Assembly: GCA_018303855.1 (NCBI GenBank)
Contig: JAGVXI010000007.1
Coordinates: 12,143 to 76,142, forward strand
DNA from: Candidatus Pacearchaeota archaeon
GTDB taxonomy: Archaea > Nanobdellota > Nanobdellia > Pacearchaeales > GW2011-AR1
Direction: 5' to 3'
Length of the DNA stretch: 64,000 nucleotides
In this document: positions 47,776 to 64,000 of the stretch, piece after piece
Layout: every line of letters starts with the position of its first letter
Numbering within the stretch: position 1 is the first letter of the stretch
The notes under the pieces: generated by a model
Told to the model about the DNA's origin: nothing
Database searches by the model: none
The model's input: the letters and a program-made list of their open reading frames with translations, nothing else
Position numbers and translations under genes: made by a program

Positions 47776-48408
47776 TCACAAATTCAAAATCTCCCTCAAA
47801 TCCCTAATTTTCCTTCCTTGATAATCTGGGTGCTTGTTTTTTGAATCAAAAAGAACAGCATTACTTCTTGTTATTTGAGCTCCGCGAATATCAGATATGA
47901 GATTATCCCCCACCATTATTGTGTTTTCAGGAGAAGAGCCGATTTTTTTAAAACAAAGTTCAAAGATTTCTTTTTGAGGTTTCTTTAATCCGACTTTGTG
48001 AGAAAGAACAATTACATCAACATATTCTCTAAACCCTTTTTCAATAATAACTTTATCAACAAAGTTATTATTATCAGATAAAATAGCAATTTTGGAGCCT
48101 TTTTTTCTTAATTCATTCAGCACTTCTATAGCATGTGGCAAGATTTCTGTTTTGCTTAGTATATTATCTAATTTTGAAAAAAATTCTCTTTTTTGTTCTT
48201 CTGTAAAAGATAATCTAAGATGATTTAAGAGAGCATTAAGAGCAGCCTCTCTTGAACCAAAATCTCTCACATCTAAGAAGTATCTAATGTCTGTAAAATA
48301 ATCTTCTGCATTTTTTCCAAAACTTTTGCTCATAAGTTCAACATAAGCAGACATGTCAAAACTAACTAAAGTTTCAAAAAAATCAAAAATATAATTCATT
48401 TTTGCCAA
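47776..48408 (-). CDS. HAD-like hydrolase (non-canonical motif I)
   Basis: 'YIFDFFETLV' at the N-terminus; 'LSDNNN' and 'MVGDNLISDIRGA' at the C-terminus. Confidence 0.5.
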   Translation of the reverse strand: MAKMNYIFDFFETLVSFDMSAYVELMSKSFGKNAEDYFTDIRYFLDVRDFGSREAALNALLNHLRLSFTEEQKREFFSKLDNILSKTEILPHAIEVLNELRKKGSKIAILSDNNNFVDKVIIEKGFREYVDVIVLSHKVGLKKPQKEIFELCFKKIGSSPENTIMVGDNLISDIRGAQITRSNAVLFDSKNKHPDYQGRKIRDLREILNL

Positions 48409-49448
48409 AATTTTTTTGTTAAATTAATCCTTTTACCATTTGATTCTGCAGACTTATAAAATCCAAAGATTACCTTCATAGCAGGAATAGAATCCTTCCC
48501 TTCTATTAATGGTTCCCTACCTTTCATAACTGAATCGACAAAATCATTTATTATTATTTCATGACATGGTCCATAATAAGCTGGTCTGTATTTTAAAGGG
48601 ATTGCATTTAAATTTGCGTCTAAAGGAGCAGGCATATTTGGAACACTCCATACAGGAGTTAAATCATCAGATAAAACAATTTTTCCATTTTCTCCTGAAA
48701 TGCTGATAATTGAAAGAGTTTCTTGATTATTAGGACCAAGAGAAGAATTATTAGCTTCTAAATTAGCTACAAAGCCATTTCTAAAATAAATTTTTCCTTT
48801 TGCATAATCTTCTATCTCTAAATAATCTCTAGTTGTCTTGGTAACTCCTTCAACGGCAATAGGCTCGCCAAAAATAAAGACAATTTGATCAATTCTGTGT
48901 AAAGTTTGGCTCATTAAAACCCCGCCTCCTGTTTTTTTTGCTGCTCTCCAACCATTATAAAATTCTTTTTTCTTATAACAGCTAAAATCTAACTCCACAT
49001 TGCGAATTTTTCCAAGAAGCCCTTCTTTAACAGCTTCCCTTGCAGCTATTGTATTAGGATAAAGTCTTCTTTGAAGCATTGTTGAAAATTTAACCCCTTC
49101 TTTATCACACGTGTCTATCATATCCTCAATATCTGACATTTTTGAGGCCAGAGGCTTCTCGCATAAAACATCAAGTCCATTTTTAGCAAAGAAAATTGTT
49201 TGTTCAGGATGCTCATAGTGGGGTGTTAAAATAAAAACTGCATCCAGATTGTCTTTCAAAACATCTTTGTAATCTGTATATACCTCATTTATATTAAATT
49301 CTTTTGCCTGTTTTTCAGCTTTTTCAGGATTAATATCCGCAACAGAAACAACTTCTGCATCAGGACTTTTACTTAAAGTGTAAAGATATGTGGGGGAAAC
49401 ATTTCCACATCCTATAACAGCAGATTTTACGAGCCTCGATTTTTTCAT
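48396..49448 (-). CDS. Gfo/Idh/MocA-family NAD(P)-dependent oxidoreductase
   Basis: 'KSAVIGCGNVS' and 'GLDVLCEKPLA'. Confidence 0.75.
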   Translation of the reverse strand: MKKSRLVKSAVIGCGNVSPTYLYTLSKSPDAEVVSVADINPEKAEKQAKEFNINEVYTDYKDVLKDNLDAVFILTPHYEHPEQTIFFAKNGLDVLCEKPLASKMSDIEDMIDTCDKEGVKFSTMLQRRLYPNTIAAREAVKEGLLGKIRNVELDFSCYKKKEFYNGWRAAKKTGGGVLMSQTLHRIDQIVFIFGEPIAVEGVTKTTRDYLEIEDYAKGKIYFRNGFVANLEANNSSLGPNNQETLSIISISGENGKIVLSDDLTPVWSVPNMPAPLDANLNAIPLKYRPAYYGPCHEIIINDFVDSVMKGREPLIEGKDSIPAMKVIFGFYKSAESNGKRINLTKKFWQK

Positions 49449-49451
49449 TTA

Positions 49452-50285
49452 TTGAAATACATGGCATGCCTTATAAATCTTGCTTACATAAAATATATAA
49501 ACAAAAATGCGCAATTGATAAATATGAAAAATAAAGATAGAGGTAGAAAAATTCCTTCTGTAAAAGAATTAAAGAAGTTATGCCAAAAACCAGAACCGCC
49601 AAAATACTGGCGTGATAGATTTCTACGAAAAATATCAATACGTTTTACAAAATTATTTTTAATGCTCGGTATGACCCCAAACCAAGTGAGTTTTCTTGTT
49701 TTGATTTTCGGGATTATTTCTGCTTTATTTTATATGACTGGGCAGTATTTTTATTTGCTAATCGGACTGTTATTTCATCATCTGCATTTTATTTTTGATG
49801 GATGCGACGGAGAAGTAGCAAGATTTAGGAAAACTAATGAGCTAGAAGATACCCGAGGAGTTTATCTCGATGGAATGACTCATGCAATAGTTATCCCTTT
49901 ATTAATTATGGGCATGGCTATTGGTTCTTATTTTAATAATTTTACACCTTTTCCAGATGCAACCTTTTTAATTGCTGGTTTTTTTGGGGGGTATTCTTTA
50001 TTACTGCTTAATTTTAGTCGTGTTAAAAAATATGAAGTGTTCACAAAAAAAGGCAGATATGATATTTTAAAAAAAATTAATAGGATTCTTTCTGGAAAAG
50101 AAGGAAAATCAAATTGGTTAAGAACTGAGATAGAATTCTTATTGGGTTTTGAATTGTTTAATTTAATGTTTGTTTTTACAATATTAAACTTAGTACCTTA
50201 TTTGGTATTATTTTATGCGATATTCTTTACCTTATTTGCTATTAGAAGATTTTATTTGGGGTATAAAAATATAGAGAGAATTTAA
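49452..50285 (+). CDS. CDP-alcohol phosphotransferase-like integral membrane protein
   Basis: 'DGCDGEVARFRKTNELEDTRGVYLDGMTH' approximates the DGx2ARx8Gx3Dx3D signature, with a longer loop and a terminal H. Polytopic. Confidence 0.5.
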   Translation: MKYMACLINLAYIKYINKNAQLINMKNKDRGRKIPSVKELKKLCQKPEPPKYWRDRFLRKISIRFTKLFLMLGMTPNQVSFLVLIFGIISALFYMTGQYFYLLIGLLFHHLHFIFDGCDGEVARFRKTNELEDTRGVYLDGMTHAIVIPLLIMGMAIGSYFNNFTPFPDATFLIAGFFGGYSLLLLNFSRVKKYEVFTKKGRYDILKKINRILSGKEGKSNWLRTEIEFLLGFELFNLMFVFTILNLVPYLVLFYAIFFTLFAIRRFYLGYKNIERI

Positions 50286-50436: not shown

Positions 50437-51195
50437 TCAAGTATACCCCAAAGCTCTAAGTTTTGCCATTACTTCTTCTCTTACTATCCCTCTTCCTGCT
50501 CTTTCATGAGCATTTGGGTCTGTATTTTTCTCAGAGAATATTGTGCACCCTAAAGAAGTATATCCCTGAGCATAAAGAGGGTTGCATTCAAGATTAAATT
50601 TTTTAACATATTCTAAAATATCAGCTTGTCTCCAAAATAACAGTGGATGCACTCTAATATGAATCGGATTTTGCCTTGGTGAAAAAAAAGTTTCTTTTGC
50701 TCTTTCTTCATGCTCTACTCCTCTTAACCCCACAAAAAAAGCATTAAATCCTCTATCACTAATTGCTTTCATCATAGGGGCTATTTTATGATACCCGTCA
50801 TATGCTACAGTAAATTCAGGAGTTTTAAATCCATACAATTGCTTAAATTCTTCTGTACGTATTTGGTCTGCTCTAACTTTTTGATAATCTTTTATGTCCC
50901 ACCCTATTATGACTTTGTTTACAAAGTCGTAAGTTTCTGGAAATTCATGCTGGGTATCTACAAAAACGCAGGGGATATTTTTCTTTAAAGGCAAAACAAG
51001 ATGCAATAAAACTAAACTATCTGTTCCTCCACTAAAACCCAGCCCTATCTTAGAATATCTTTCAAGAGCCTCTTTTATGATTTCTTTAGACTTTTCTATT
51101 TTTTTATCAAGAGGTAAAGCCAATAAAGGCTTAATCTCTGGTCTCATTAAATCCTCACAAATCTTTGCCCTCTCTTTTGTAAATGTTTCAACCAT
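50437..51195 (-). CDS. PAPS-reductase-family PP-loop protein
   Basis: 'GLGFSGGTDSLVLLH' (SGGxDS PP-loop) and C-terminal '...YTSLGCT...ERAGRG'. Confidence 0.6.
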   Translation of the reverse strand: MVETFTKERAKICEDLMRPEIKPLLALPLDKKIEKSKEIIKEALERYSKIGLGFSGGTDSLVLLHLVLPLKKNIPCVFVDTQHEFPETYDFVNKVIIGWDIKDYQKVRADQIRTEEFKQLYGFKTPEFTVAYDGYHKIAPMMKAISDRGFNAFFVGLRGVEHEERAKETFFSPRQNPIHIRVHPLLFWRQADILEYVKKFNLECNPLYAQGYTSLGCTIFSEKNTDPNAHERAGRGIVREEVMAKLRALGYT

Positions 51196-51593: not shown

Positions 51594-52889
51594 ATGAAAA
51601 ATATTGTTATTATCATCATAGATGCTTTAAGGCCAAAAAACCTCAGTTTGTTTGGGTATAACAAAGAAACAGACAAAAATCTTAAAGAAATTGCAAAAGA
51701 ATCTACATTGTTCAGAAACTTTTTTTCTGTTTCTAATTCTACTTTTCCAACAATAACAAGCTTGTTTACAGGCAAGTATCCAAAAACTCACGGAATAATG
51801 CATCAAGCTCCATATGCAACACCAGAAGAATACGAAAAATTGCTGGCAATAGAACAGCCAAAATTTTGGCTTCCGACTTATCTAAAAAACAAAGGCTATT
51901 ACACTATTGGAATTGACTGGATAGGTTTATGGTTTAAAGAGGGTTTTGAATATTATGGAGAGAAAAAAGAAGCGTTTTATAAAAAATTTACAAAAAACGC
52001 AGCAGTAAAAAAAATTTTGTTAAACTTGCCAAGTTGGGCTTATAAATTTGGAAAAAGTTTTGTAAAAAATAAAAATGAAAAACTGTTTCCCTCTGCAAAA
52101 CAAATGGCTGATTTAGCAATAGATAAAGTTAAAGAAGCTGAAAAATTAAACAAACCATTTTTTCTTTTTATGCATTTTGAAGATACTCATTTTCCTTATC
52201 CAAATGTACCTAAACCAGAACTTTCAGGAGAAAATGATATTAATGAAGTTTTAGAAAAAATCAATACTGATTCACAAAGAGAATATTTTAAGAAAAGAGT
52301 TGCAGATATTGAATTAGCTTCAATTAAAGATATGAAAAATAAATATGACTTAGCTATTACTGGAATAGATGAACAAATAGGAAGAATAAGAAATTTTTTA
52401 ATCGAAAATGAGCAGTGGGAAGATACAATGTTTATTATCTTGTCTGACCATGGGGATTGCTTGGATGAACACGGAGTTTATTTTAGTCATGCAAGTCTTT
52501 TTGATGAATCTGTTCATGTCCCACTAATCATGAAAATACCTAATTTTAAAAGTAGAGAGATCAATGAATTTGCACAAACTCCTGACATTGCACCAACTAT
52601 CTTGGAAGGATTTGGCGATAAGGGGGATTTTGAAGGAAAATCAGTTATTTCATTAATAAAAAAAGGCAACCCGTTAAGAGATAAAGTGCTTTTATATGAT
52701 GGCTTGGCACCTGATGTTAAAGCTGTGAGAACAAAAAAAAGAAAACTTATTATTGCTAATGGTAATAAATGCAATTTATGTAAATCAGAACACCATGCAA
52801 AAATAGAAGAATATGACTTAGAAAAAGACCCTAATGAAACAAATAATATCTATTCGGGAAAAAGTGAGTTAATGGAGTTTATTAAATAA
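51594..52889 (+). CDS. alkaline-phosphatase-superfamily (sulfatase-like) enzyme with Thr rather than Cys/Ser at the nucleophile position. It appears soluble.
   Basis: 'NIVIIIIDALRPKN', 'STFPTITSLFTGKYP' (aligned with the sulfatase CxPxRxxxxTG) and 'SDHGDCLDEHG'. Confidence 0.6.
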   Translation: MKNIVIIIIDALRPKNLSLFGYNKETDKNLKEIAKESTLFRNFFSVSNSTFPTITSLFTGKYPKTHGIMHQAPYATPEEYEKLLAIEQPKFWLPTYLKNKGYYTIGIDWIGLWFKEGFEYYGEKKEAFYKKFTKNAAVKKILLNLPSWAYKFGKSFVKNKNEKLFPSAKQMADLAIDKVKEAEKLNKPFFLFMHFEDTHFPYPNVPKPELSGENDINEVLEKINTDSQREYFKKRVADIELASIKDMKNKYDLAITGIDEQIGRIRNFLIENEQWEDTMFIILSDHGDCLDEHGVYFSHASLFDESVHVPLIMKIPNFKSREINEFAQTPDIAPTILEGFGDKGDFEGKSVISLIKKGNPLRDKVLLYDGLAPDVKAVRTKKRKLIIANGNKCNLCKSEHHAKIEEYDLEKDPNETNNIYSGKSELMEFIK

Positions 52890-52899
52890 ATAATAAAAA

Positions 52900-53388
52900 A
52901 TGAAAAGATTGAATTTAGGTTGTGGACCAGATTATAGAAAAGGTTGGGTAAACGTAGATATAAGAAAAGACATTAAGGCAGATATTGTTCATAATTTAAA
53001 TAAGTTCCCTTATCCATTTAAAGAAGATGAATTTGATATTACATTAATAAGCCATACTTTAGAGCATTTGGATTATCCTGAAAGAGTTTTAAAAGAAGTG
53101 GTAAAAATATGCAAAAGCGGTGCAAAGTTGATAGTTGAAGTGCCACATGCGTTTTCTTATGCAAATGCTACTGATATGCAGCATAGGCGTAATTTTACTG
53201 AGAACTCATTTACAAGAAAACATATTATGCAATATGGATTGGGAGCATTAAGATTGCGAAAAAAGGTATTTCTTTACCCAGTGAATAAATGGAAGAAGTA
53301 TATCCCATTGAAAAGGGTTCTTAAAATTTTCTTCAATGGGATTTATGACAATCTTTTATTTGAGTTTAAGATTGAGAAGGAGAAATAA
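52900..53388 (+). CDS. class I SAM-dependent methyltransferase, paralogue 2 of 3
   Basis: 'RLNLGCGPDYRKGWVNVDI...LEHLDYPE...GAKLIVEVPH'. Confidence 0.6.
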   Translation: MKRLNLGCGPDYRKGWVNVDIRKDIKADIVHNLNKFPYPFKEDEFDITLISHTLEHLDYPERVLKEVVKICKSGAKLIVEVPHAFSYANATDMQHRRNFTENSFTRKHIMQYGLGALRLRKKVFLYPVNKWKKYIPLKRVLKIFFNGIYDNLLFEFKIEKEK

Positions 53389-53437
53389 AGATTTTAACAC
53401 AATTAAGTATTTAAACAGATTTTTTAATCTGAATTAG

Positions 53438-54553
53438 ATGAATAAGAGATTAAAAATAGCAATCTTTGAACCTTCTCGTGGAGTTGTTGGGGGAGGGCAG
53501 AAAGCAATGGCAAAAATTGCTGCGCACTTAGCCGAAAAACATGATGTTACAATTTTTACGCAAAGGCCTCCAGAACAAAAGTTTGAATTAGATTTTGGAA
53601 AAGCATGCATTAAATATATTAAACCAAATAAACAATTTCTTGCTCCACTTGCATTTTTATTAAAAAAAGTCAGTGGTTTTGATTTATTATTTTTAGGGGG
53701 ATTTCCTGCTAATTTAGGAAGTATTAGGAATAGTAAAAGCACTCCCTGCATCACTCTTTGTTATTCCCCAACAAGGGTTTTTTATGATTTGCGGGAACAT
53801 TTAAAAAAATGTTCTACACGTAGTGGGCAGATAAAATTAATTTTCAAAACCATCTTTCTTAGGAGATTGGATTATATGGCTTCCCAAAAAACACACTTAA
53901 TTTTAGCTATTAGCAAAACTATTGAAGAGAGAGTTAAAAGGTATTATAAAAGAAAATCTGTTGTTTTTTACCCCGGAATTGATTCTTATCAGTTTAAAAA
54001 AGGGAAATATAACAATTATATTCTAAGTGTTGCCAGATTTGTTTCTGCAAAAAGAGTGGATATGATAATAAAAAGCATGGAATATGTTAAAAATAAAAAA
54101 ATTCAGATGTATATTGTGGGGGCAGGCGAAAGAGAAAAAGAATATCGAGCGCTTGCAAAAAAATATCCTAATGTTAAATTTCTTGGTTTTGTAAGCAACA
54201 AAAAACTTTTCGAACTTTACGCAAATTGCCTTGCAGCTATCTACATTCCAATAGATGAAGATGAAGGGTATGTGCCAATTGAAGCTGGTGCATCTGAAAA
54301 AACAACAATAGGCGTAAACGAAGGCGGACTACGTGAAACCATTATTAACGGCAAAACAGGATTTTTAATTGATAATGTAACACCACAAAAAGTGGCGGAA
54401 AAAATAGATTTTTTAGCCAATAATAAAAAAATAGCGAAGAAAATGGGCAAAGAAGCATACAAATATACCCGAAAATTTGATTGGAAAAATACTCTTACCG
54501 AACTTGATAAAGCAATTGAAAAATTATTAAAAATAAAAGCCAAGGTAAAATGA
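53438..54553 (+). CDS. GT4 (GT-B) glycosyltransferase
   Basis: 'EDEGYVPIEAGASEKTTIGVNEGGLRETI'. Confidence 0.7.
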   Translation: MNKRLKIAIFEPSRGVVGGGQKAMAKIAAHLAEKHDVTIFTQRPPEQKFELDFGKACIKYIKPNKQFLAPLAFLLKKVSGFDLLFLGGFPANLGSIRNSKSTPCITLCYSPTRVFYDLREHLKKCSTRSGQIKLIFKTIFLRRLDYMASQKTHLILAISKTIEERVKRYYKRKSVVFYPGIDSYQFKKGKYNNYILSVARFVSAKRVDMIIKSMEYVKNKKIQMYIVGAGEREKEYRALAKKYPNVKFLGFVSNKKLFELYANCLAAIYIPIDEDEGYVPIEAGASEKTTIGVNEGGLRETIINGKTGFLIDNVTPQKVAEKIDFLANNKKIAKKMGKEAYKYTRKFDWKNTLTELDKAIEKLLKIKAKVK

Positions 54554-55068
54554 AAAAATTAAATCTTGGAAGCGGATTTGATTATAAGCGAGGCTGGATA
54601 AATGTTGATATTAATAATAAAGATATTTATGGAAGAAAAATAAAAATTGATGTGAAGCATGACTTGAACAAATCTCCTTGGCCATTTAAAAAAAATGAAT
54701 TTGATTTTGTGTTGATGAAAGGTGTCCTTGAACATATGAGTGATATTGATAAAACAATTAAAGAATTAGCAAGAATTACAAAAACAGGAGCTAAAATAAA
54801 AATTTCTGTCCCTTATTTTACAAGCTATTTTGCATATAGAGAACTTTATACACATAAATTCTCGTTAAATGCTTTGCAATTATTTGGTATATTTAAAAAA
54901 TACAGATTAATAATAATCTCAAAAAAATTAAGAAACAATAACAAATTCTTAAAATGGATAGAAATTTTTGTTAATTTTAATGAATCAACCCAAAACTTTT
55001 ATGAAAGATTTTTTTCTGGGATTTTTCCAATGAACCAGATTGAGTGGGTGTTAAGAGTTGAAAAATGA
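54550..55068 (+). CDS. class I SAM-dependent methyltransferase, paralogue 3 of 3
   Basis: 'KLNLGSGFDYKRGWINVDI...LEHMSD...GAKIKISVPY'. Confidence 0.6.
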   Translation: MKKLNLGSGFDYKRGWINVDINNKDIYGRKIKIDVKHDLNKSPWPFKKNEFDFVLMKGVLEHMSDIDKTIKELARITKTGAKIKISVPYFTSYFAYRELYTHKFSLNALQLFGIFKKYRLIIISKKLRNNNKFLKWIEIFVNFNESTQNFYERFFSGIFPMNQIEWVLRVEK

Positions 55069-55207
55069 ATAAATTATAACCTTTGATAACCATAAAAAAG
55101 ATATGTTAAATAACAAGCTTCTTAAACAATTACTGCTTGGGGCATTATATATTTAAGACAAAACCATAATTACCTATTAAATGTTTTGCTGAAAGCTTAA
55201 TAAATTC

Positions 55208-56296
55208 TTATAAAATATTCCTTAATTCATTGCATATATATTCAATTTCCTCTTTTTTCAGCTTCACAGAACTTGGCAAACTAATTCCTCTTCGAGATAT
55301 ATCTTCTGATATAGGGTACTTGTTCTTTTCCTTATATGGAGGCATTTGATGAATTGGGTAAAATAACGGGCGCGTATCAATGCCTTTTTCTGCAAGTTTT
55401 TTCATGATTTCATCTCGTGATTTGCTATTTATTAAAATAGAGTACAACCAGATAACATTTTTTGCCCAAGGCATTTTTGGATGAGGAGTTATTAACCCTT
55501 GATTTATCAAATCTTTTAGATAGTGCCTGTACAAATTTGCTATTTGGTTCTTTTTTTCTATAAATTTATCCAACTTTTTAAGCTGAGCCAAACCCACAGC
55601 TGCCTGCATATTTGTCATACGATAATTGTACCCAACAACTTCATGCCAATATCTCTTTTTTTTAGACATTCCATGATTTTTAAAAAGATTTATTTTCTCA
55701 AGAAATTTTTCATTATTTGTTAAGCACATTCCTCCTTCGCCAGTTATAATGTTTTTATTTCCAAAAAAAGAAAAACAAGAGATATCCCCAAAACTTCCGA
55801 CTTTTTTTCCCTTATATTCTGCACCATGTGCTTCTGCTGCATCTTCTATAACGTAAAGATTGTATTTTTTAGCAATTTCAAGAATTGATTCCATATCACA
55901 AGGATGCCCATACAGATGAACAGGAATAATTGCTTTTGTTTTTTTTGTGATTTTGTTTTTTATTTTTTCTGGATCTATGCCCCAATAATCTTTGTTTACA
56001 TCGACAAAAACAGGTTTGGCGCCGCAATATCTCACAGTATTTACAGGAGCTATAAATGTAAGGCTTGGAACAATTACTTCGTCTCCTGGTTTAATTCCAA
56101 CAGCAAGAAGAGCAAGGTGCAAAGCTGTTGTGCCATTTGAAGTTGAACTTGAATATTTCATGTTGCAGTATTTGGCAAAAGCCTGCTCAAATCTTGAAAT
56201 AAACTCCCCTTTAGAACTAATCCAGCCGGTTTTAATTGTTTCTAGAAGATTATTAAATTCATTTTCGTCAAAATAAGGCTCTGCAACAGGTATCAT
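55208..56296 (-). CDS. DegT-family PLP-dependent aminotransferase, GDP-perosamine synthase-like. It is adjacent to gmd.
   Basis: 'WISSKGEFISRFEQAFAKYC', 'IIPVHLYGHPCDM' and 'FSFFGNKNIITGEGGM'. Confidence 0.75.
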   Translation of the reverse strand: MIPVAEPYFDENEFNNLLETIKTGWISSKGEFISRFEQAFAKYCNMKYSSSTSNGTTALHLALLAVGIKPGDEVIVPSLTFIAPVNTVRYCGAKPVFVDVNKDYWGIDPEKIKNKITKKTKAIIPVHLYGHPCDMESILEIAKKYNLYVIEDAAEAHGAEYKGKKVGSFGDISCFSFFGNKNIITGEGGMCLTNNEKFLEKINLFKNHGMSKKKRYWHEVVGYNYRMTNMQAAVGLAQLKKLDKFIEKKNQIANLYRHYLKDLINQGLITPHPKMPWAKNVIWLYSILINSKSRDEIMKKLAEKGIDTRPLFYPIHQMPPYKEKNKYPISEDISRRGISLPSSVKLKKEEIEYICNELRNIL

Positions 56297-56297
56297 T

Positions 56298-57353
56298 TTA
56301 AGAGGTGTCTTTTATTCCTTGGAATTTTTTTATATCAGCATCAATCATGATTTTTACAAGTTCATGAAACTTAATTTTTGGTTGCCATCCAAGCTTTAAT
56401 TTTGTTTTTGAAGCATCGCCTTGCAATAAATCAACTTCTGTTGGCCTAAAATGTTTTGGATCTATCCTAATAATAGTTTTTCCTGTTTTTTTATCAATTC
56501 CCATTTCATTTAAACCAGCACCAACCCATTCTAAATCAATGCCTAACTCTTTACAAGCAACCTCTACGAATTCCCTAACAGAATGGGTTTCACCGGTTGC
56601 TATTATATAATCATCTGGATCTGGCTGTTGCATCATTAGCCACATTGCTTCTACATAATCTTTTGCATAGCCCCAATCTCTTTTTGCATTTAAATTCCCC
56701 AGGTAAAAAATATCTTTTAACCCTAATTTAATTTTGCACAGATTTTGAGTTATTTTTCTTGAAACAAAATTTTCCCCTCGTCTTGGAGATTCATGATTAA
56801 AAAGAATTCCATTGACTACAAACATATCATATGCTTCTCGATAATTTTTAGCAATCCAATAAGCGTATAATTTTGCACAGCCATATGGGCTTCTTGGATA
56901 AAAGGGAGTTTTTTCAGTTTGAGGGGTTTCCAAAGCCTTGCCAAATAATTCGCTTGAAGATGCTTGATAAAATTTGATTGGAAAACCAGCGCTTCTTATT
57001 GCCTCCAAAAGCCTTATTGTTGATAAACCAGTAACATCTGCTGTGTATTCTGGAATATCAAATGAAATCCTGACATGAGACTGCGCACCTAAATGGTATA
57101 TTTCAGCAGGCTTAATTTTTTCTATAAGCCTTGCAATAGAGCTTGAATCTGCCAAATCCCCATAATGAGTGAATATTTTTGTTTTAACTCCTTCTTCTGG
57201 GGTGTGCAGGTGATCAATTCTCTCAGTATTAAATGTTGAACTTCTTCTTATAAGACCATGAACCTCATACCCTTTCTCTAATAAAAATTCAGCAAGATAT
57301 GAACCGTCTTGACCGGTTATCCCTGTTATTAACGCTCTTTTCATAACTGCCAA
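56298..57353 (-). CDS. gmd: GDP-mannose 4,6-dehydratase
   Basis: '[35 protein letters not shown]' is the canonical GMD N-terminus. 'YGCAKLYAY' follows. Confidence 0.85.
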
Positions 57354-57420
57354 AAAAAGAATTAGTTTTTAATGATTATGTATTTTAAATAGGCATGTTG
57401 CAAAATTATATTTATAGTCT

Positions 57421-58170
57421 TTAATGCCACTTTTTTGAGTCTCCAAGCATCTTACTTAATCTCTCATTATAATCTAAACCAGGGTAGTGGTTTATTACTG
57501 GTTTTTTTGTTTCAAATCTGCCTGGGATATTATTCCATTTTAAATCAAGCCAGCTAATTTTTTCTTCCCATTTGGAGGGAACTTTAGTAATTTGCCTGCC
57601 AGTATCAAGTGTTTTAGAAAGAGCTTGCTTAAGCTTGCTTTTTTTTAGGATTTTAGTTGCCATATTTTTTAATCTTGTTTTATAAAGAAATGCAAGCACA
57701 ATAGTTTTTAGTGTACTTTGTTTTTTTACTTTATACCCTAACAAATCATTTAAAGCTGCATTTTCCCACCATTTATGATAAATAAACTCCTCTTTGTTCC
57801 ATACAGCTTTAAATAAAGATTTTGAAAAATTAGTATTTTTTATTAACATCATACCAGTGTTGGGGATATCTCCGTGTTTTACTAAATAAATATCCTTATC
57901 CTTCTTTATTTCTCTCATAATATTCTTGTCAAATCTTACAAAAATAGCATCAGAATCAATCCAAAAAACAAAGTCATAATCATAAGGAGGATTTAACAAT
58001 TTGGTTATTATTATAATTTTATTCCAAGGAGCTGGGCGAGATGATTTTAAATCATTAAATAATTTTACATCAAAATGGTATTTATTTGCATATTCTTCAA
58101 CACTTTTTAAGCATAATCTGCCCATCTGCTCAAAATTATTATCAAAATAAGTTGTAAGGCATATTTTCAT
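57421..58170 (-). CDS. GT34-like (GMA12/MNN10 galactosyl/mannosyltransferase family) glycosyltransferase, paralogue 1
   Basis: 'WNKIIIITKLL...DFVFWIDSDAIF' and 'NTGMMLIKNTNFS'. Confidence 0.5.
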   Translation of the reverse strand: MKICLTTYFDNNFEQMGRLCLKSVEEYANKYHFDVKLFNDLKSSRPAPWNKIIIITKLLNPPYDYDFVFWIDSDAIFVRFDKNIMREIKKDKDIYLVKHGDIPNTGMMLIKNTNFSKSLFKAVWNKEEFIYHKWWENAALNDLLGYKVKKQSTLKTIVLAFLYKTRLKNMATKILKKSKLKQALSKTLDTGRQITKVPSKWEEKISWLDLKWNNIPGRFETKKPVINHYPGLDYNERLSKMLGDSKKWH

Positions 58171-58260
58171 GGTAAAATAAAAATAGTCAACTTGTTTTTA
58201 AAGATGCTTATTATGCAAGATATAAAATTATTTAAAGAAATTTATGGTTGGTTTATAGAA

Positions 58261-59181
58261 ATGAAAAAAATACTCGTAACAGGAGGTGCGGGATTTATCG
58301 GAAGTTCACTTGTGGATAGATTAGTTCAAGAACCAGATAATCATATTACAGTAGTGGATAATTTACTAACGGGAAGAAGAGAGTATATCCTAAAAAATGC
58401 GCAGGATTATCAATTCATTAAATGTGATGTTAACAACTTTAAAGATATTTCAGCTGTAATGCTTTCTAATAACTTTGATTATGTTTTTCATTATGCAGCT
58501 GTAGTTGGAGTACAAAGAACATTAAATAATCCAATGATGGTTCTCAATGACATAGATGGAATAAAGAATGTGCTTAATCTCGCAAAAAACACAGGAGTAA
58601 AGACAGTTTTTTTTTCATCATCATCTGAGATTTATGGAGAATCAGTAGAATTTCCACAGCATGAACACACTACCCCTTTAAATTCCAGGCTTCCTTATGC
58701 TGTTGTGAAAAACGCTGCAGAAGCTTTTTTAAGAACATTTCAAGAAGAGTATAATTTGAATTACACAATTTTTAGGTTTTTTAACACATATGGACCAAGA
58801 CAAAGTGCAGATTTTGTAATCTCTAAGTTTATCGACGCTGCGCTTAAAGGAAAAGATATTCCTATTTATGGGGATGGAAATCAGTCAAGAACTTTTTGCT
58901 ATATAGATGATAATCTTGAAGCAACTACTAACATCTTGAAGCAAAACCTGTATGAAAATGATGTTGTGAATATAGGAAATGACAATGAAACTTCTGTTTT
59001 AGAATTAGCTCAACTGATAATAAAACTAACAGACTCAAAATCTAAGATACTGCATCTGCCCCCACTAAAGCAAGGTGATATGAAAAGAAGAGTCCCAGAT
59101 GCCTCAAGAATGAAAGAGATTTTAGGAAGGAATTTTATTACTTTAAAAAATGGTTTAGAAAAAATAATAAATCAAAAATAG
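58261..59181 (+). CDS. NAD-dependent epimerase/dehydratase (extended SDR). The start is chosen at MKKILVTGG rather than the upstream ATG at 58192.
   Basis: 'ILVTGGAGFIGSSL' and 'YAVVKNAAE'. Confidence 0.75.
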   Translation: MKKILVTGGAGFIGSSLVDRLVQEPDNHITVVDNLLTGRREYILKNAQDYQFIKCDVNNFKDISAVMLSNNFDYVFHYAAVVGVQRTLNNPMMVLNDIDGIKNVLNLAKNTGVKTVFFSSSSEIYGESVEFPQHEHTTPLNSRLPYAVVKNAAEAFLRTFQEEYNLNYTIFRFFNTYGPRQSADFVISKFIDAALKGKDIPIYGDGNQSRTFCYIDDNLEATTNILKQNLYENDVVNIGNDNETSVLELAQLIIKLTDSKSKILHLPPLKQGDMKRRVPDASRMKEILGRNFITLKNGLEKIINQK

Positions 59182-60023
59182 AACGTATTGACTAGCTTAA
59201 CATCTGCAACCATTTGTTTTAATCGTTCTTGAATTGACATGGCAGGATAATGATTTATTATTCTATTTCTTGGCAATGGTTCATAACATAAAGCATTCCA
59301 TTTTGAATCAAGCCATTTTACTTTTTCTAACCATTTGCTTTTGGGATTGTTTATTATTTTTTTATTAATATTCTTAAATCCCAGCTTATTTTTAGATTTT
59401 TGCGTGAATCCTAATTTTTTAAAGCTCAACATTTTTTTTAGTTTTGGAATATAATTTCTTATTTTTAGTTTATGAGCTATGCCAAGTAAAAACTCCTTGA
59501 ATGGTTTTCTGTCAATTATGTGTTTATATCCGAGTACATCATCTAGTGCTGCATTTTCCCAGAGTTTATTGTAGATGTATTGTTTTTTGTTCCATATTAC
59601 CTGCAAAAGTTGTTTTGACCAGTTGCTATTACATATTAACATCACGCCAGTTGATGGTCTGTCTTGCCCTTGAGCATTAAATTTAGTCAAATAAACATCC
59701 TTATTGGGAGAAATTTCTTTGGCAATATCTTTGTCAAATCTCATAAATATTGTATCAGAGTCAACCCAAAAAACAAAATCATAATCTTTTTGACTATTAA
59801 GAAGCTGCCTGATAATGGCAATTTTGTTCCATGCTGGAGGTCTCGTAGTTAAGGGCTTTGTGTAAGCTATTATATCATACCCGTATTTTTCAGCGTATCT
59901 TCGCATTCCCTTAAGACAAATTTTTCCGATGTGTTCAAAATTCTTGTCAAAAAAGGTGGTTAAGCAAATTTTGGGCTTTTGTTCTTTTATTTTATCCTTC
60001 ATTTTGTTAATAACCATCAGCAC
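59172..60023 (-). CDS. GT34-like glycosyltransferase, paralogue 2
   Basis: 'WNKIAIIRQLL...DFVFWVDSDTIF' and 'STGVMLICNSNWS'. Confidence 0.5.
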   Translation of the reverse strand: MLMVINKMKDKIKEQKPKICLTTFFDKNFEHIGKICLKGMRRYAEKYGYDIIAYTKPLTTRPPAWNKIAIIRQLLNSQKDYDFVFWVDSDTIFMRFDKDIAKEISPNKDVYLTKFNAQGQDRPSTGVMLICNSNWSKQLLQVIWNKKQYIYNKLWENAALDDVLGYKHIIDRKPFKEFLLGIAHKLKIRNYIPKLKKMLSFKKLGFTQKSKNKLGFKNINKKIINNPKSKWLEKVKWLDSKWNALCYEPLPRNRIINHYPAMSIQERLKQMVADVKLVNTFYF

Positions 60024-60067
60024 TGGTAAACCATTTATTCCCGACTTTTAAATATATATCTTTTATA

Positions 60068-61609
60068 CTACTTATGTTTGAATATTTTCTTCTTAATGCT
60101 CCTCAAAATCAAAAAATCATTTTTATCCAGACAACCAGTTGCAAATATTAGGATTAAATAAATAAGCAAGAATAATATGCCAATTAAGATTAAGCTTAGA
60201 TTATTAATTGGAACAATCTCTTTTAAATAAAAGAGTATAAAAATTGGGATAAGTGAAACAGAAAAAATTCTTAGCATTTTTCTTCTAAAAGGAAATGCCT
60301 TTGTTAATGAATATGTTTGTGTTATTAACCCAATACTCATCATCACATTAACAAAACTAGTTGATAGGGCTGCACCAATTAAACCATATTTTGGAATAAG
60401 AAGTAGCCCCAAAATAAGATTAAAAAGAGATGCTAAAATTAAATTTAATAGGAGTAGCTTTGATTTTCCAGCCATAGAGATTATGTTAGTTGTTATTGGA
60501 ATAACTAAAGCTGCAATCAATCCTCCTACCGCAATAATCCTTAAAGGTTCTTGGGCAATAATGTACCCGGGTCCAAAAAGTAAATTAACAATTGCTTCTG
60601 GAAATAGTATTAAAAGTAAAAAAATCGGCAGAATTATAATAAAAATCCATTTACTAACTTGTTTAGTTAATTCCCGTATCACTATAAAATTCCTGTTTGA
60701 AAATTCTTTTGTAATTAATGGAAAAAAAAGCTGCATAAATAATTCTGGTGCAATGCCCATTACTCCTACAATTGTGATGGCAACATTATAAAACCCAACA
60801 CTAGAAACATCCATAAAATACCCAATTATGAATGAATCTATTTCATAAAATATTGAGGTCATAAGAGAGAAAAACATAATAGGCCATGAATATGAAAAAA
60901 ATTTCTTTATTTCTTCTTTTTTTATTTTTTGATTAATGATGTATGGCCCAAATATTTCTGGAACCTTGTATCTACAAATTAGATAAGCTACTATAAAAAC
61001 ACTCATAATTCCTGCAGCATAAGACCAGATAATTGCATTTGTTTTAAATCCCATCAAAACAAATAAGATTAGGGCAAAAACCTTGGCAAAATTAATCAAG
61101 ATATTTGAAACAAAAGAGTACCATCCAATTTTTTCATATGCCCTGATTATTGAAGCAAAGACTCTTGAAAAAACATAAAATGGGATAAACAAGCTAAAAA
61201 CTTTTAAGAAGATAATTAACTCAGGCGTATGGAATATTTTTACAGCAATAAAATCAGCTGAGACATACATCATAATCGCAGCAAAGACTGTGGAAAAAGA
61301 CAGGAATATCAGAGAAAATCTTAAGATATTTTTTATTTTAGCAATTTCTTTTTTTCCGCGATATAAAGAGACAAATCTAAGGACTCCTCTAGCTAAACCA
61401 AATGCGGCAATAACTGTAAACCACCCTAAAATCATAATAGCCAAAGAGAACATTCCGTAAATTTCTGGGCCAAAATATCTTGCAAGAATTACTTTATACA
61501 CATAAGTGAATAGTTTTGATAAAGTCAAACCAATAAGAACAACTATAGAGGATTTTATAATTAATTTAAGCCCTCTATTTACCTCTTCATTTTCGTGATG
61601 TTCATCCAT
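60068..61609 (-). CDS. MOP-superfamily polysaccharide flippase (Wzx-like)
   Basis: 513 aa with about 14 TM segments, as expected for Wzx/PST family transporters. Confidence 0.65.
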   Translation of the reverse strand: MDEHHENEEVNRGLKLIIKSSIVVLIGLTLSKLFTYVYKVILARYFGPEIYGMFSLAIMILGWFTVIAAFGLARGVLRFVSLYRGKKEIAKIKNILRFSLIFLSFSTVFAAIMMYVSADFIAVKIFHTPELIIFLKVFSLFIPFYVFSRVFASIIRAYEKIGWYSFVSNILINFAKVFALILFVLMGFKTNAIIWSYAAGIMSVFIVAYLICRYKVPEIFGPYIINQKIKKEEIKKFFSYSWPIMFFSLMTSIFYEIDSFIIGYFMDVSSVGFYNVAITIVGVMGIAPELFMQLFFPLITKEFSNRNFIVIRELTKQVSKWIFIIILPIFLLLILFPEAIVNLLFGPGYIIAQEPLRIIAVGGLIAALVIPITTNIISMAGKSKLLLLNLILASLFNLILGLLLIPKYGLIGAALSTSFVNVMMSIGLITQTYSLTKAFPFRRKMLRIFSVSLIPIFILFYLKEIVPINNLSLILIGILFLLIYLILIFATGCLDKNDFLILRSIKKKIFKHK

Positions 61610-61646
61610 ATTAACTACTTAGAAAAAATTAGTTTTTAAACATTGT

Positions 61647-62780
61647 TTAGAATAAATCTTTAAGCATTTTCCTTAGAACTATTTCTGTAAATTTTCTGGG
61701 ATTATTAGATAATCTTCTTGGATTGGGAGATTCCGCCATTTTGTAGATATCCTCTTCTTTTAAGCCAAGCCCACTAAGCCTTGTTTCTAAACCTATTTCA
61801 TCCATAAGCTTGCTTATTTTTTGTTTCAATTTCTTTGGGGTAGGACAACCACAAAATTTACATAAATCTAATATAGTTTGCCTGACATAGGTAAATCCTC
61901 TTTCATCATTACACTCTTCTTGAGTCGTGCCAGCATTATATCCCAAAACTGATCCAAGAGTCATAGCAACTGCATGTCCATGAGGAACCCGATGGTTAAT
62001 TGTTAGGTAGTAAGATAATGCATGAGGTGCTGTTGTTAGGGTAATATTAATTGCCTTCCCTGATAAATTTGCAGCACGAGACATCGCAATTCTTGATCCG
62101 ATTGTATTCTTCTTAACTGCATCTTCAAGATTCTGAAAACAAAGAGTTATTGCTTTTTTTGAAAATTTTTTTGAGTTATAATTGGAATTAATGCTCCAAT
62201 AAGATTCCATAGCTTGGGAAAGAGCATCTATTCCTGTTGAAGCAGTTATTTTTTGGGGAAGAGTCATCGTTAACAAAGGATCAATTAAGGAATAACCAGG
62301 AATTAAGAATTTGTGATGTAAAGAAATTTTTTCATGTCCACTAGTTATAACAGAAAAACCTGTAGCTTCACTGCCAGAACCAGAAGTTGTTGGAATTGCA
62401 ACTAATGGCTTACCTTTATTTTTTATTTGCCGGATTTTGTTTAAATAGTCAGTAGGTGGAAATTCCTGCTGTGATAAGACATTAATTGATTTAGCTATGT
62501 CCAGTGCACTACCACCACCTACTGCAATAACTAAATCACAATCATCATCAAAACTAAAAATCCCCTTTTCTAAATCACTAATGGTAGGATCTGGTGAAAA
62601 ATCTGTAAAATGAACTAATTTATAATTTAGGAACATTGATGAAAGTTTATCTTTAGCCCCTGAAATAATATAAGAGTTTTTTCCGGTTACAAGGAATATT
62701 TTTTTTGGTTTTTCTAAATCCAATATCTCTGGTAACTTTTCAATAATTCCCACACCAAAATATTCCTTTTGTTTAATCAT
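61647..62780 (-). CDS. group III iron-containing alcohol dehydrogenase, phosphonoacetaldehyde reductase-like
   Basis: 'DLVIAVGGGSALDIAKSI' and 'HGHAVAMTLG' are the metal/NAD motifs of Fe-ADH. It overlaps the upstream ThDP gene by 8 nt. Confidence 0.7.
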   Translation of the reverse strand: MIKQKEYFGVGIIEKLPEILDLEKPKKIFLVTGKNSYIISGAKDKLSSMFLNYKLVHFTDFSPDPTISDLEKGIFSFDDDCDLVIAVGGGSALDIAKSINVLSQQEFPPTDYLNKIRQIKNKGKPLVAIPTTSGSGSEATGFSVITSGHEKISLHHKFLIPGYSLIDPLLTMTLPQKITASTGIDALSQAMESYWSINSNYNSKKFSKKAITLCFQNLEDAVKKNTIGSRIAMSRAANLSGKAINITLTTAPHALSYYLTINHRVPHGHAVAMTLGSVLGYNAGTTQEECNDERGFTYVRQTILDLCKFCGCPTPKKLKQKISKLMDEIGLETRLSGLGLKEEDIYKMAESPNPRRLSNNPRKFTEIVLRKMLKDLF

Positions 62781-63903
62781 GCTCCAAAAATTTCATAAAA
62801 ACTGTTTTATTCTCTAAAGGGGTTTTTGTCGGCCTTCCTAAATCTAATCTGGAGCCATTCTTAACTTTAATAACCAGCATTGCTGGACCTTTCAAATAGT
62901 TTATTTTATTAATTGCAGTTATCACTTGTTTTTTTGTGTAAACAATTTTAGCAAAGCCATATCCAGAAGCCAATGCTATTTTTTTAAAGTCTACAGTATT
63001 TGAAACAGTTGGTTGCCCGCCTGTAGACTCGTGAGAATTATTATCAAAAATTAAGTGCAAGATATTTTTTGGTTTATAGTGCCCTATTGTAGCTAATGTC
63101 CCAAGTTGCATCAAAACAGCCCCATCGCCATCAAGGATGACGATTTTTCTATTTGGGATCTGCAAGGCAATTCCAAAAGCAATTGAAGAAGCACACCCCA
63201 TACTTCCGACTGTATAAAAATCATGTGGTTTATGATGTTTAGATATCCTATATTCAAATAATTCTCTTGAGGCTTTGCCTGTTGTGGAGATAATTGCTTC
63301 AGACCCACTAAGTGAGTCCAATATTGTTTTAATTGCTTCTTCTCTTGTCATCTCATACGTCTGCTTATAATTAATTCTTGAAGAATATTTAGTAAAAGTT
63401 TCTTTTTTGATGATTATAGCAACTGGCTGATTTTTTTCTACTGCAATTTGCTTAGCTTTAGATATAATTAAATCTACTTTCTCTTTGTTATCTGGCATAA
63501 TAGCGTATGGAATCTCAAGTGTTTTAAGTAAAGGAACCATGATCCTGCCCATCTTTTTATGCTGAGGTTCATCTTTGTTTCCTGGTTCCCCTCTCCATCC
63601 AATCATTAGAATTAAGGGAATAGAATATACTTCTTTATCGCATAGAGATGTTAGAGGATTAACTGCTTTTCCTAACCCCGCATTTTGCATGTAAACAACT
63701 CCAACCTTTCCAGTTGCTAAATGATATCCTGTTGCAATGGCAGTTGCTTCACACTCATTACAAGCTATAATATTAGTAAGTTTTTTATTATGCTTATCAG
63801 CAAGAAAACTCATCCAGTCTTTAAAAACAGAGTCTGGCACACCTGTAAAAAAGGTAAGATCATTTTTTTTAAAAATTTCAAAGAGGTCTTCACAGATTAT
63901 CAT
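62773..63903 (-). CDS. small two-domain ThDP-dependent decarboxylase, phosphonopyruvate decarboxylase-like. The alternative is sulfopyruvate decarboxylase.
   Basis: About 376 aa with Pyr and PP domains. 'FTGVPDS' sits near the N-terminus. The ThDP motif is 'LDGDGAVLMQ...FDNNSHESTGGQP' (GDG...NN). The start is placed at the ATG at 63903; the track's 63957 start is a TTG. Confidence 0.5.
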   Translation of the reverse strand: MIICEDLFEIFKKNDLTFFTGVPDSVFKDWMSFLADKHNKKLTNIIACNECEATAIATGYHLATGKVGVVYMQNAGLGKAVNPLTSLCDKEVYSIPLILMIGWRGEPGNKDEPQHKKMGRIMVPLLKTLEIPYAIMPDNKEKVDLIISKAKQIAVEKNQPVAIIIKKETFTKYSSRINYKQTYEMTREEAIKTILDSLSGSEAIISTTGKASRELFEYRISKHHKPHDFYTVGSMGCASSIAFGIALQIPNRKIVILDGDGAVLMQLGTLATIGHYKPKNILHLIFDNNSHESTGGQPTVSNTVDFKKIALASGYGFAKIVYTKKQVITAINKINYLKGPAMLVIKVKNGSRLDLGRPTKTPLENKTVFMKFLEHD

Positions 63904-63916
63904 TTTGATTACACTT

Positions 63917-64000
63917 TTAAGTTTTATATTCTGCTGTATAAGTTCTGGTTGAACCAACAGGCTCTAAAACCTCTTTTATAGAGGAGCATATTTCTTCAGC
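63917..64000 (-). CDS. 3' end of a further upstream gene on the minus strand that runs off the window. Its product is unknown; this is where PEP mutase would be expected.
   Basis: The frame is open from the window edge to a TAA at 63917-63919 (C-terminal ...AEEICSSIKEVLEPVGSTRTYTAEYKT). It ends 14 nt before the ThDP gene's ATG. Confidence 0.3.
   Translation of the reverse strand, partial: AEEICSSIKEVLEPVGSTRTYTAEYKT

Follow-up and report, generated by a model that had tools for sequence, protein, structure and literature searches.

The question raised by this locus is whether an archaeon of the DPANN lineage Candidatus Pacearchaeota decorates its surface with a compound holding a carbon–phosphorus (C–P) bond and, if so, with which one. 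The stretch analysed here, hereafter the window, comprises 64,000 nt (positions 12,143–76,142 of the forward strand of contig JAGVXI010000007.1, assembly GCA_018303855.1, Candidatus Pacearchaeota archaeon). Near its far end lie the genes of a thiamine diphosphate (ThDP) enzyme and an iron-containing alcohol dehydrogenase (Fe-ADH), in which an initial annotation had seen part of a pathway to 2-aminoethylphosphonate (AEP) or 2-hydroxyethylphosphonate (HEP). We find that these genes belong to a nine-gene operon, which would probably yield methylphosphonate (MPn) formed via HEP, activated with cytidine monophosphate (CMP) and attached to a surface glycoconjugate.

The operon and its core enzymes

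The window edge cuts the operon within the 3′ end of the gene for phosphoenolpyruvate (PEP) mutase, and the window carries the operon's 3′ half. The remainder was read from L001, a 146-kb ENA contig (L001, L003 and the like are locus labels for contigs compared in this analysis). Window positions 52773–64000 are 100% identical to L001 over 11,228 nt, and this contig, which extends beyond base 64000, is for that reason taken to represent the genome of the window. An exact-sequence look-up located the ThDP protein in at least 24 contigs, L001 among them (44 index blocks of the collection). The start of the window is an archaeal ribosomal-protein/SecY operon, whose SecY has its closest named relatives in Candidatus Pacearchaeota and Nanoarchaeota (67–70% identity). 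In the direction of the operon, on the minus strand, the nine genes and the divergent neighbour of the first are as follows.

L001:5233–5766, operon strand, off-window: cytidylyltransferase CTa
L001:5763–6212, operon strand, off-window: cytidylyltransferase CTb
L001:6216–7580, operon strand, off-window: homologue of methylphosphonate synthase (MpnS)
L001:7589–9064, operon strand, off-window: radical SAM/SPASM protein
L001:9061–9987, in the window 63917..64000, minus strand (last 27 codons and stop): PEP mutase (PepM)
62773..63903, minus strand: phosphonopyruvate decarboxylase (Ppd; TIGR03297, Pfam TPP_enzyme_N and TPP_enzyme_C)
61647..62780, minus strand: group-III Fe-ADH (Pfam Fe-ADH and ADH_Fe_C)
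60068..61609, minus strand, 37 nt 3′ of the Fe-ADH gene: MOP/Wzx-type polysaccharide flippase (Pfam Polysacc_synt, Polysacc_synt_3 and MatE)
59172..60023, minus strand, final co-directional gene: GT34-like glycosyltransferase (Pfam Glyco_transf_34 and Nucleotid_trans)
L001:4198–4962, minus strand, divergent from the operon: CDP-OH_P_transf-like gene

Intergenic spacing across the operon ranges from −8 to +50 nt, and the four genes 5′ of PepM, on the same strand, are spaced by −4 to +8 nt. A chance explanation is dismissed because the open reading frames (ORFs) are long and their family matches strong (E from 1e-16 to 1e-137). Further, genes for Ppd, Fe-ADH, MpnS and a cytidylyltransferase–PepM recur together with the divergent CDP-OH_P_transf gene in three other DPANN metagenome-assembled genomes (MAGs; L003, L007 and L008).

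The initial annotation had suggested looking past position 64000 for a PEP mutase, and the extended contig holds one. The protein has 308 aa and reaches 338.1 bits on TIGR02320 (cut-off 319.55), with the phosphonopyruvate hydrolase and methylisocitrate lyase models below their own cut-offs. Its residues 125–134, EDKKYPKSNS, correspond to the active-site motif EDKx5NS, which sets PepM apart within the isocitrate-lyase superfamily (PMC8942020; 10.1101/2020.11.04.368217). By profile and motif, the upstream gene is that of a true PEP mutase, with its catalysis predicted. The frame was indeed co-directional with the ThDP gene and ran off the window as described, but it stops at 63917, 13 nt and not 14 nt ahead of the Ppd ATG.

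The ThDP enzyme is likewise the compact protein that had been described. Counted from its ATG, the single chain has 376 aa; Pfam places TPP_enzyme_N at residues 5–110 and TPP_enzyme_C at 210–344, and the GDG and NN of its ThDP/Mg motif lie at 259 and 288–289. On TIGR03297, the equivalog model for phosphonopyruvate decarboxylase, it reaches 456.2 bits (cut-off 312.5). In comparison, the sulfopyruvate decarboxylase models give 134.5 against a cut-off of 221.5 bits for the beta subunit (ComE, TIGR03846) and 87.8 against 147.95 bits for the alpha subunit (ComD, TIGR03845), and acetolactate synthase models give at most 58 bits against cut-offs above 500. The ComDE-like identity that had been offered as an alternative is thus ruled out by the profile cut-offs and by the PepM gene upstream, and the protein is assigned on these scores as a true phosphonopyruvate decarboxylase.

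The Fe-ADH has 377 aa. An overlap of 8 nt between its ATG and the Ppd stop (ATGATTAA) makes the translational coupling proposed earlier plausible. Homologues with 35–52% identity adjoin PepM or Ppd in more than 20 other loci (L003–L016 and many metagenome loci) and have the subfamily motifs DALSQ and PHGH in common. From family and context, rather than as an equivalog, the protein is predicted to be a group-III Fe-ADH acting as a phosphonoacetaldehyde reductase that makes HEP. As a side observation, Gln replaces the His of the canonical D-x3-H metal motif in this phosphonate-linked subfamily (DALSQ); PHGH is kept, and no His stands 14 residues further on, where the second one usually lies. Metal ligation in these enzymes may differ from that of textbook group-III ADHs.

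The MpnS homologue and the proposed route

Pfam and NCBIfam scans of the 454-aa MpnS homologue gave no model match. Its alignment to the MpnS of Nitrosopumilus maritimus (PDB 6b9s) has an E value of 3.5e-78 and 267 bits and spans nearly the whole protein (query 10–454, chain 16–451); the match to the HEPD of Streptomyces albus (6b9r) is lower, at 216 bits, and the similarity to HppE is weak. MpnS is distinguished from HEPD by the 2-His-1-Gln iron triad H148/Q152/H190 together with F162 and I/V184, where Phe162 and Ile/Val184 fix the Gln ligand and HepD has I/Y162 and E/G184 (PMC9381506 Suppl. Table S2; PMC11978286). Counted along the 6b9s alignment, the homologue carries H149, Q153, F163, I184 and H190, which is the MpnS signature. 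A pattern scan found HQFIH in this protein and in 13 relatives, against HQYGH in the HEPD reference. The database search returned 1383 relatives at E ≤ 1e-20, of which several with 43–46% identity bear the JGI name 'methylphosphonate synthase'. In a GTDB scan, where this species is without an entry, the nearest relatives are 49–54% identical and belong to DPANN MAGs.

With this enzyme included, a route of six steps can be proposed. PepM would convert PEP to phosphonopyruvate, and Ppd would convert phosphonopyruvate to phosphonoacetaldehyde, drawing the unfavourable mutase equilibrium forward. The Fe-ADH would turn phosphonoacetaldehyde into HEP, from which the MpnS homologue, as a non-haem iron bicupin that depends on O2, would form MPn and CO2. 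One or both of the cytidylyltransferases would then make the CMP-phosphonate. Finally, the phosphonyl group would be transferred to a surface glycoconjugate of the surrounding glycosylation island, for which the divergent CDP-OH_P_transf-like protein is the best candidate and a sulfatase-like protein of Thr type, described below, the alternative.

The family assignments behind the first, second and fourth steps are established by the sequence tests given above, and the third is predicted from family and conserved context. The fifth and sixth steps and the nature of the acceptor we infer by analogy with Fom1, with PntC/LicD-type tailoring and with the N. maritimus cluster. Of the products named in the initial annotation, HEP keeps its place on the route as an intermediate. 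The end product is probably MPn and neither HEP nor AEP, because the MpnS homologue is encoded three genes upstream in the same operon. AEP would not be an intermediate either, since neither the operon nor its immediate surroundings hold a gene recognisable as that of an AEP transaminase.

Proposed activation and transfer, and the radical SAM partner

The two in-operon cytidylyltransferases, CTb with 149 aa and CTa with 177 aa, are of the PF01467 type and have the HxGH motif (HYGH and HMGH). Over the whole domain, they match the cytidylyltransferase (CyTase) domain of Fom1 (5x3d) with E values of 1.9e-14 and 1.3e-10; in fosfomycin biosynthesis, this domain forms CMP-HEP (PMC6697681). The CyTase domain is fused to PepM in relatives, for example in a 439-aa ORF of L007, and is split off and duplicated in this operon. 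Further features of the window bear on activation, transfer and acceptor.

57421–58170, minus strand: second glycosyltransferase of the glycan island (Pfam)
56298–57353, minus strand: GDP-mannose 4,6-dehydratase (TIGR01472 gmd, 566 bits, cut-off 415)
55208–56296, minus strand: LegC/PseC-family aminotransferase (TIGR04181, 380 bits)
51594..52889, plus strand: 'sulfatase-like' protein of the alkaline-phosphatase superfamily (Pfam Sulfatase and Phosphodiest)
44919–47669, plus strand: 916-aa nucleotidyltransferase fusion (N-terminal domain NTP_transf_3, MobA/LicC type) at a distance of 13,978 nt from the Fe-ADH gene

The last of these had been pointed out in connection with CMP activation. The fusion is present at about the distance given, 14 kb, but is the poorer choice: by analogy with Fom1, the best candidates for phosphonate activation are the two cytidylyltransferases within the operon, and with these dedicated enzymes at hand the fusion is not needed. 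It has four parts, namely an IPCT/glucose-1-phosphate-cytidylyltransferase-like domain, a sugar-1-phosphate nucleotidyltransferase, an AAA_33/KTI12-type kinase and a histidine phosphatase. Its neighbours at 47776–50285 encode a DIPPS/AIP-synthase-like CDP-alcohol transferase, an inositol-2-dehydrogenase-like oxidoreductase and HAD phosphatases. With these inositol-type domains and neighbours, a role in phosphonate activation is unlikely, and the whole looks like a separate, self-contained CDP-alcohol module, perhaps of inositol type.

The divergent CDP-OH_P_transf-like protein is a membrane protein with a Pfam match, and its best NCBIfam matches are to archaetidylinositol-phosphate synthase-like models (39 bits, cut-off 180). 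Its signature reads DHIDGSVAR-x8-G-x3-D-x3-H, against D-x2-D-G-x2-A-R-x8-G-x3-D-x3-D in the family. The same His for Asp occurs in 8 of the 18 cluster-linked homologues, and the gene is conserved beside Ppd in the DPANN loci L003, L007 and L008. The His variant was also seen in the second CDP-alcohol-phosphotransferase-like protein, encoded at 49452–50285 of the window (plus strand), and in homologues beside phosphonate genes in L003, L007, L008, L024, L025, L080 and L086.

In the sulfatase-like protein, a motif scan did not find the formylglycine motif C/S-x-P-x-R, and T-F-P-T-I occupies the equivalent place. This replacement suggests a phospho(no)esterase or transferase with a Thr nucleophile rather than a sulfatase. 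There is weak local similarity to phosphoethanolamine transferases, and the protein might act on the glycan as a phospho(no)transferase or esterase. The adjoining gene in the island (50437–51195, minus strand) encodes a PAPS-reductase/CysD-like protein, which may take part in glycan chemistry involving sulfur or nucleotides (ATP-PPase type) and not in assimilatory sulfate reduction.

A surface glycan is the most likely acceptor because the operon is surrounded by the flippase, the glycosyltransferases, the GDP-mannose 4,6-dehydratase, the LegC/PseC-type aminotransferase and two tandem AglB proteins. The MurJ and MOP-flippase NCBIfam matches of the flippase are weak. On L001, a GT2 glycosyltransferase, a PMT_2/Agl23-like GT-C protein and further glycan genes follow beyond the divergent CDP-OH_P_transf-like gene. 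The AglB/STT3 oligosaccharyltransferase paralogues, with 997 and 942 aa, are encoded at 10365–13358 and 13360–16188 of the window (plus strand), about 2.5 kb 3′ of the ribosomal-protein/SecY operon, and the glycosylation island then fills most of the remaining window.

The gene between those of MpnS and PepM encodes a radical SAM/SPASM protein of 491 aa. At least 157 proteins make up its family (the top 120 are 44–66% identical, with one 99%-identical fragment), which is spread over DPANN archaea, Omnitrophica, Armatimonadota, Deltaproteobacteria and marine metagenomes, and its invariant residues include CxxxCxxC and nine more Cys. The gene adjoins those of PepM, Ppd, Fe-ADH and a nucleotidyltransferase in all five contexts inspected (an Armatimonadota MAG, a Deltaproteobacteria MAG, the MAG contig L022 of GCA_040960315.1, a possibly viral contig and this archaeon). 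In a set of 46 metagenome loci with 5 kb or more of flanking sequence, it co-occurs with an ADH homologue in 33, PepM in 24, Ppd in 21, a cytidylyltransferase in 13 and MpnS in 10. Members of a subfamily with no PepM within the available flanks still stand beside an Fe-ADH and a nucleotidyltransferase, the latter fused to an APS kinase.

The radical SAM/SPASM enzyme probably adds a tailoring step on HEP or CMP-HEP; radical tailoring of the CMP-activated form is the most economical guess. Domain scans did not find a B12-binding (cobalamin) domain in the protein, which rules out a Fom3-like methyltransferase. An anaerobic sulfatase maturase was rejected, as the score falls short of the equivalog level and a partner sulfatase with C/S-x-P-x-R is missing. 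Also, an O2-independent substitute for MpnS is not favoured, since at least 10 loci encode both. A model of the homologue P0003 (63% identical; predicted local distance difference test score 89.7) has only generic SPASM/twitch proteins as fold neighbours (anSME, ChlB, SuiB, TigE, BlsE and MoaA). A scan of IMG/VR for the family brought up radical SAM proteins that were all unrelated to it, and a search of the searchable literature gave no description of the family. One member (P0010, L021:783–2951, 722 aa) is fused to a nucleotidyltransferase, as are three MpnS homologues of about 710 aa (P0275, P0286 and P0363). These fusions suggest that both enzymes act on nucleotide-activated phosphonates or pass their products to them.

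Competing readings and known systems

Several points weigh against a pathway to MPn on a surface glycan. The best NCBIfam model of the Fe-ADH, Phn_Fe-ADH TIGR03405, gives 178.9 bits, under its cut-off of 423.7. The MpnS homologue is only moderately identical to the characterised enzyme, and its predicted activity stands on five signature residues. MpnS needs O2 while Pacearchaeota are usually inferred to be fermentative, and the gene of an O2-labile radical SAM enzyme lies directly beside that of MpnS. The proposed route leaves the radical SAM step unaccounted for, and the compound finally made may therefore be other than plain MPn. The substrate of the cytidylyltransferases is ambiguous, in that glycerol-3-phosphate and heptose-1-phosphate transferase models also match, all below their cut-offs; a specificity for HEP or MPn is what we infer from context. 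In the CDP-OH_P_transf-like protein the last Asp of the motif is His, and the protein could act on lipids instead of glycans.

The last point leads to a different acceptor, in which the CDP-OH_P_transf-like protein would pass the CMP-phosphonate to a membrane lipid and give a phosphonolipid head group. The CDP-alcohol phosphotransferase family normally builds lipid head groups, and eukaryotic ethanolaminephosphotransferases use CMP-AEP. The gene is adjacent to the operon and is kept beside Ppd in other DPANN genomes, and the leading NCBIfam matches of its product point to archaetidylinositol-phosphate synthases. These matches are weak, however, the His replacement affects the signature itself, and the operon runs straight on into the Wzx-type flippase and glycosyltransferase genes of an island that is glycan-oriented at large, with its AglB pair, dehydratase and aminotransferase. 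We therefore regard a lipid acceptor as rather unlikely.

A second possibility concerns the product: HEP itself, or HEP modified by the radical SAM enzyme, would be attached, and the MpnS-like protein would have a HEPD-like or other activity or serve a minor branch. Polysaccharides with HEP esters are known (PMC8942020), and HEP is the characterised substrate of Fom1-type cytidylyltransferases (PMC6697681). Moreover, the radical SAM family is tied to PepM/Ppd/Fe-ADH and a nucleotidyltransferase mostly at loci where MpnS is not seen, as the counts above indicate. Yet the MpnS homologue is encoded in the operon at full length and shows every residue of the F/I-type signature by which MpnS and HEPD are told apart, and its co-occurrence with the radical SAM enzyme elsewhere means that the two are not alternatives. 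HEP as the attached group is accordingly judged unlikely.

Production of a secreted, fosfomycin-like phosphonate antibiotic is very improbable. It would be suggested by the set of cytidylyltransferase, radical SAM, PepM, Ppd and ADH, which mirrors Fom1/Fom3/Fom2/FomC, by the match of the CyTase domains to Fom1 and by the position of the radical SAM gene between the MpnS and PepM genes. Against this, the radical SAM protein is without a B12-binding domain, the similarity to HppE is confined to the MpnS protein, genes for FomD, resistance or export were not seen, and the operon sits among surface-glycan genes. A role in coenzyme M or sulfonate metabolism, with a ComDE sulfopyruvate decarboxylase and the ADH as sulfoacetaldehyde reductase, can practically be discarded: the families are related and partial matches to all three models exist, but these stay far under the cut-offs (for the ADH, 129.6 of 700 bits), the Ppd model is well exceeded, and a bona fide PepM and an MpnS are encoded in the operon.

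The favoured reading, MPn on a surface glycoconjugate, places the operon in a known type of pathway, the Nitrosopumilus-type MPn system, and what is new is the host lineage. According to the summary in PMC9381506 of Metcalf et al. 2012 and Born et al. 2017, the N. maritimus cluster consists of ppm-ppd-pdh-mpnS with nucleotidyltransferase, sulfatase-like and glycosyltransferase genes and is linked to an MPn-decorated exopolysaccharide. As far as that summary goes, the two archaeal systems agree in the four-enzyme route from PEP over phosphonopyruvate, phosphonoacetaldehyde and HEP to MPn, and in the nucleotidyltransferases, sulfatase-family protein and glycosyltransferases nearby, which suggest an MPn-esterified surface polymer. 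The H-Q-F-I-H signature of MpnS is also identical. Unlike the marine ammonia oxidiser, the host here is a DPANN Pacearchaeote from groundwater-type metagenomes. Further, its MpnS matches the Nitrosopumilus enzyme with only 267 bits, the gene order is different, its cytidylyltransferase is duplicated and separate from PepM, the operon includes a radical SAM/SPASM gene, and a CDP-OH_P_transf-like gene is adjacent.

The fosfomycin pathway of Streptomyces (Fom1 CyTase-PepM, Fom2 Ppd, FomC Fe-ADH, Fom3, Fom4 HppE) has PepM, Ppd and Fe-ADH leading to HEP, a PF01467 cytidylyltransferase domain homologous to those of this operon, a radical SAM protein in the cluster and a cupin iron enzyme, MpnS and HppE being distant relatives. 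It differs in that the radical SAM protein of the Pacearchaeote is of the SPASM/twitch type, with no cobalamin domain such as Fom3 has, its cupin is of the MpnS type and not an HppE epoxidase, no FomD gene was seen, and the context is that of surface glycans. Similarly, the bacterial Pnt pathways (PepM-Ppd-AEPT, PntC, LicD-type; Rice et al. 2019, PMC6697681) make a C–P compound, activate it with CMP and move it to surface glycans or lipids, with nucleotidyltransferases adjacent or fused to PepM. In contrast to these, the Pacearchaeote operon has no recognisable AEP transaminase in or next to it, its cytidylyltransferases are of the PF01467 and not the LicC/PntC (PF12804) type, and no LicD was found, the transferase candidates being the CDP-OH_P_transf-like and sulfatase-like proteins.

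Exact look-ups showed that the operon proteins are already deposited at NCBI under a Candidatus Pacearchaeota archaeon MAG. The phosphonate names of the PepM–Ppd–ADH core are public and the MpnS step is not named there:

MBS3085519.1, Fe-ADH: 'phosphonoacetaldehyde reductase'
MBS3085520.1, Ppd: 'phosphonopyruvate decarboxylase'
MBS3085521.1, PepM: 'phosphoenolpyruvate mutase'
MBS3085523.1, MpnS homologue: 'hypothetical protein J4225_02450'

All DPANN copies of MpnS, including those from Pacearchaeota, Nanoarchaeota and a TARA archaeon, are labelled 'hypothetical'. In surveys, archaeal MpnS is listed only for Thaumarchaeota, the known archaeal producers of MPn, and for 'Crenarchaeota archaeon' genomes; Woesearchaeota appear only in a supplementary table, through reads assigned to pepM/aepY (PMC9381506). 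In the collection of papers searched, none was found whose text joins Pacearchaeota or Woesearchaeota with phosphonate or methylphosphonate. Scans of the window for Rfam families and tRNAs gave no matches.

The PepM–Ppd–ADH–MpnS operon and its DPANN relatives would add ultra-small archaea, which probably depend on a host, to the candidate producers of MPn. Methane formed in oxygenated waters has methylphosphonate as its precursor. If DPANN archaea produce MPn, they would supply substrate for aerobic methane formation driven by C–P lyase; the source of methylphosphonate in groundwater-type samples has already been asked about (PMC11978286). For the organism itself, a reduced genome would devote nine genes to C–P decoration of the surface, which could shield the envelope from phosphatases or affect attachment to the host.

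It is a tentative and rather doubtful proposal that both of two things hold together: that the radical SAM/SPASM family performs new radical chemistry on nucleotide-activated HEP or MPn, and that Pacearchaeota and other DPANN archaea are unrecognised producers of MPn in groundwater and ocean. If the former is true, the phosphonate on the surface would be an as yet undescribed compound, and this partner of HEP pathways is an untouched target for enzymology. The range of the family may also include viruses. A contig rich in small unannotated ORFs (L017:1–17413 and L018; Logan SRR5251696 and JGI 3300025122) encodes endonuclease VII, peptide deformylase and a DNA helicase of phage type (phrog_1967, 404 bits), together with the radical SAM protein, Fe-ADH, PepM, a split Ppd, CTP_transf_3 and NeuB; this may be a virus-encoded phosphonate module of the HEP type.

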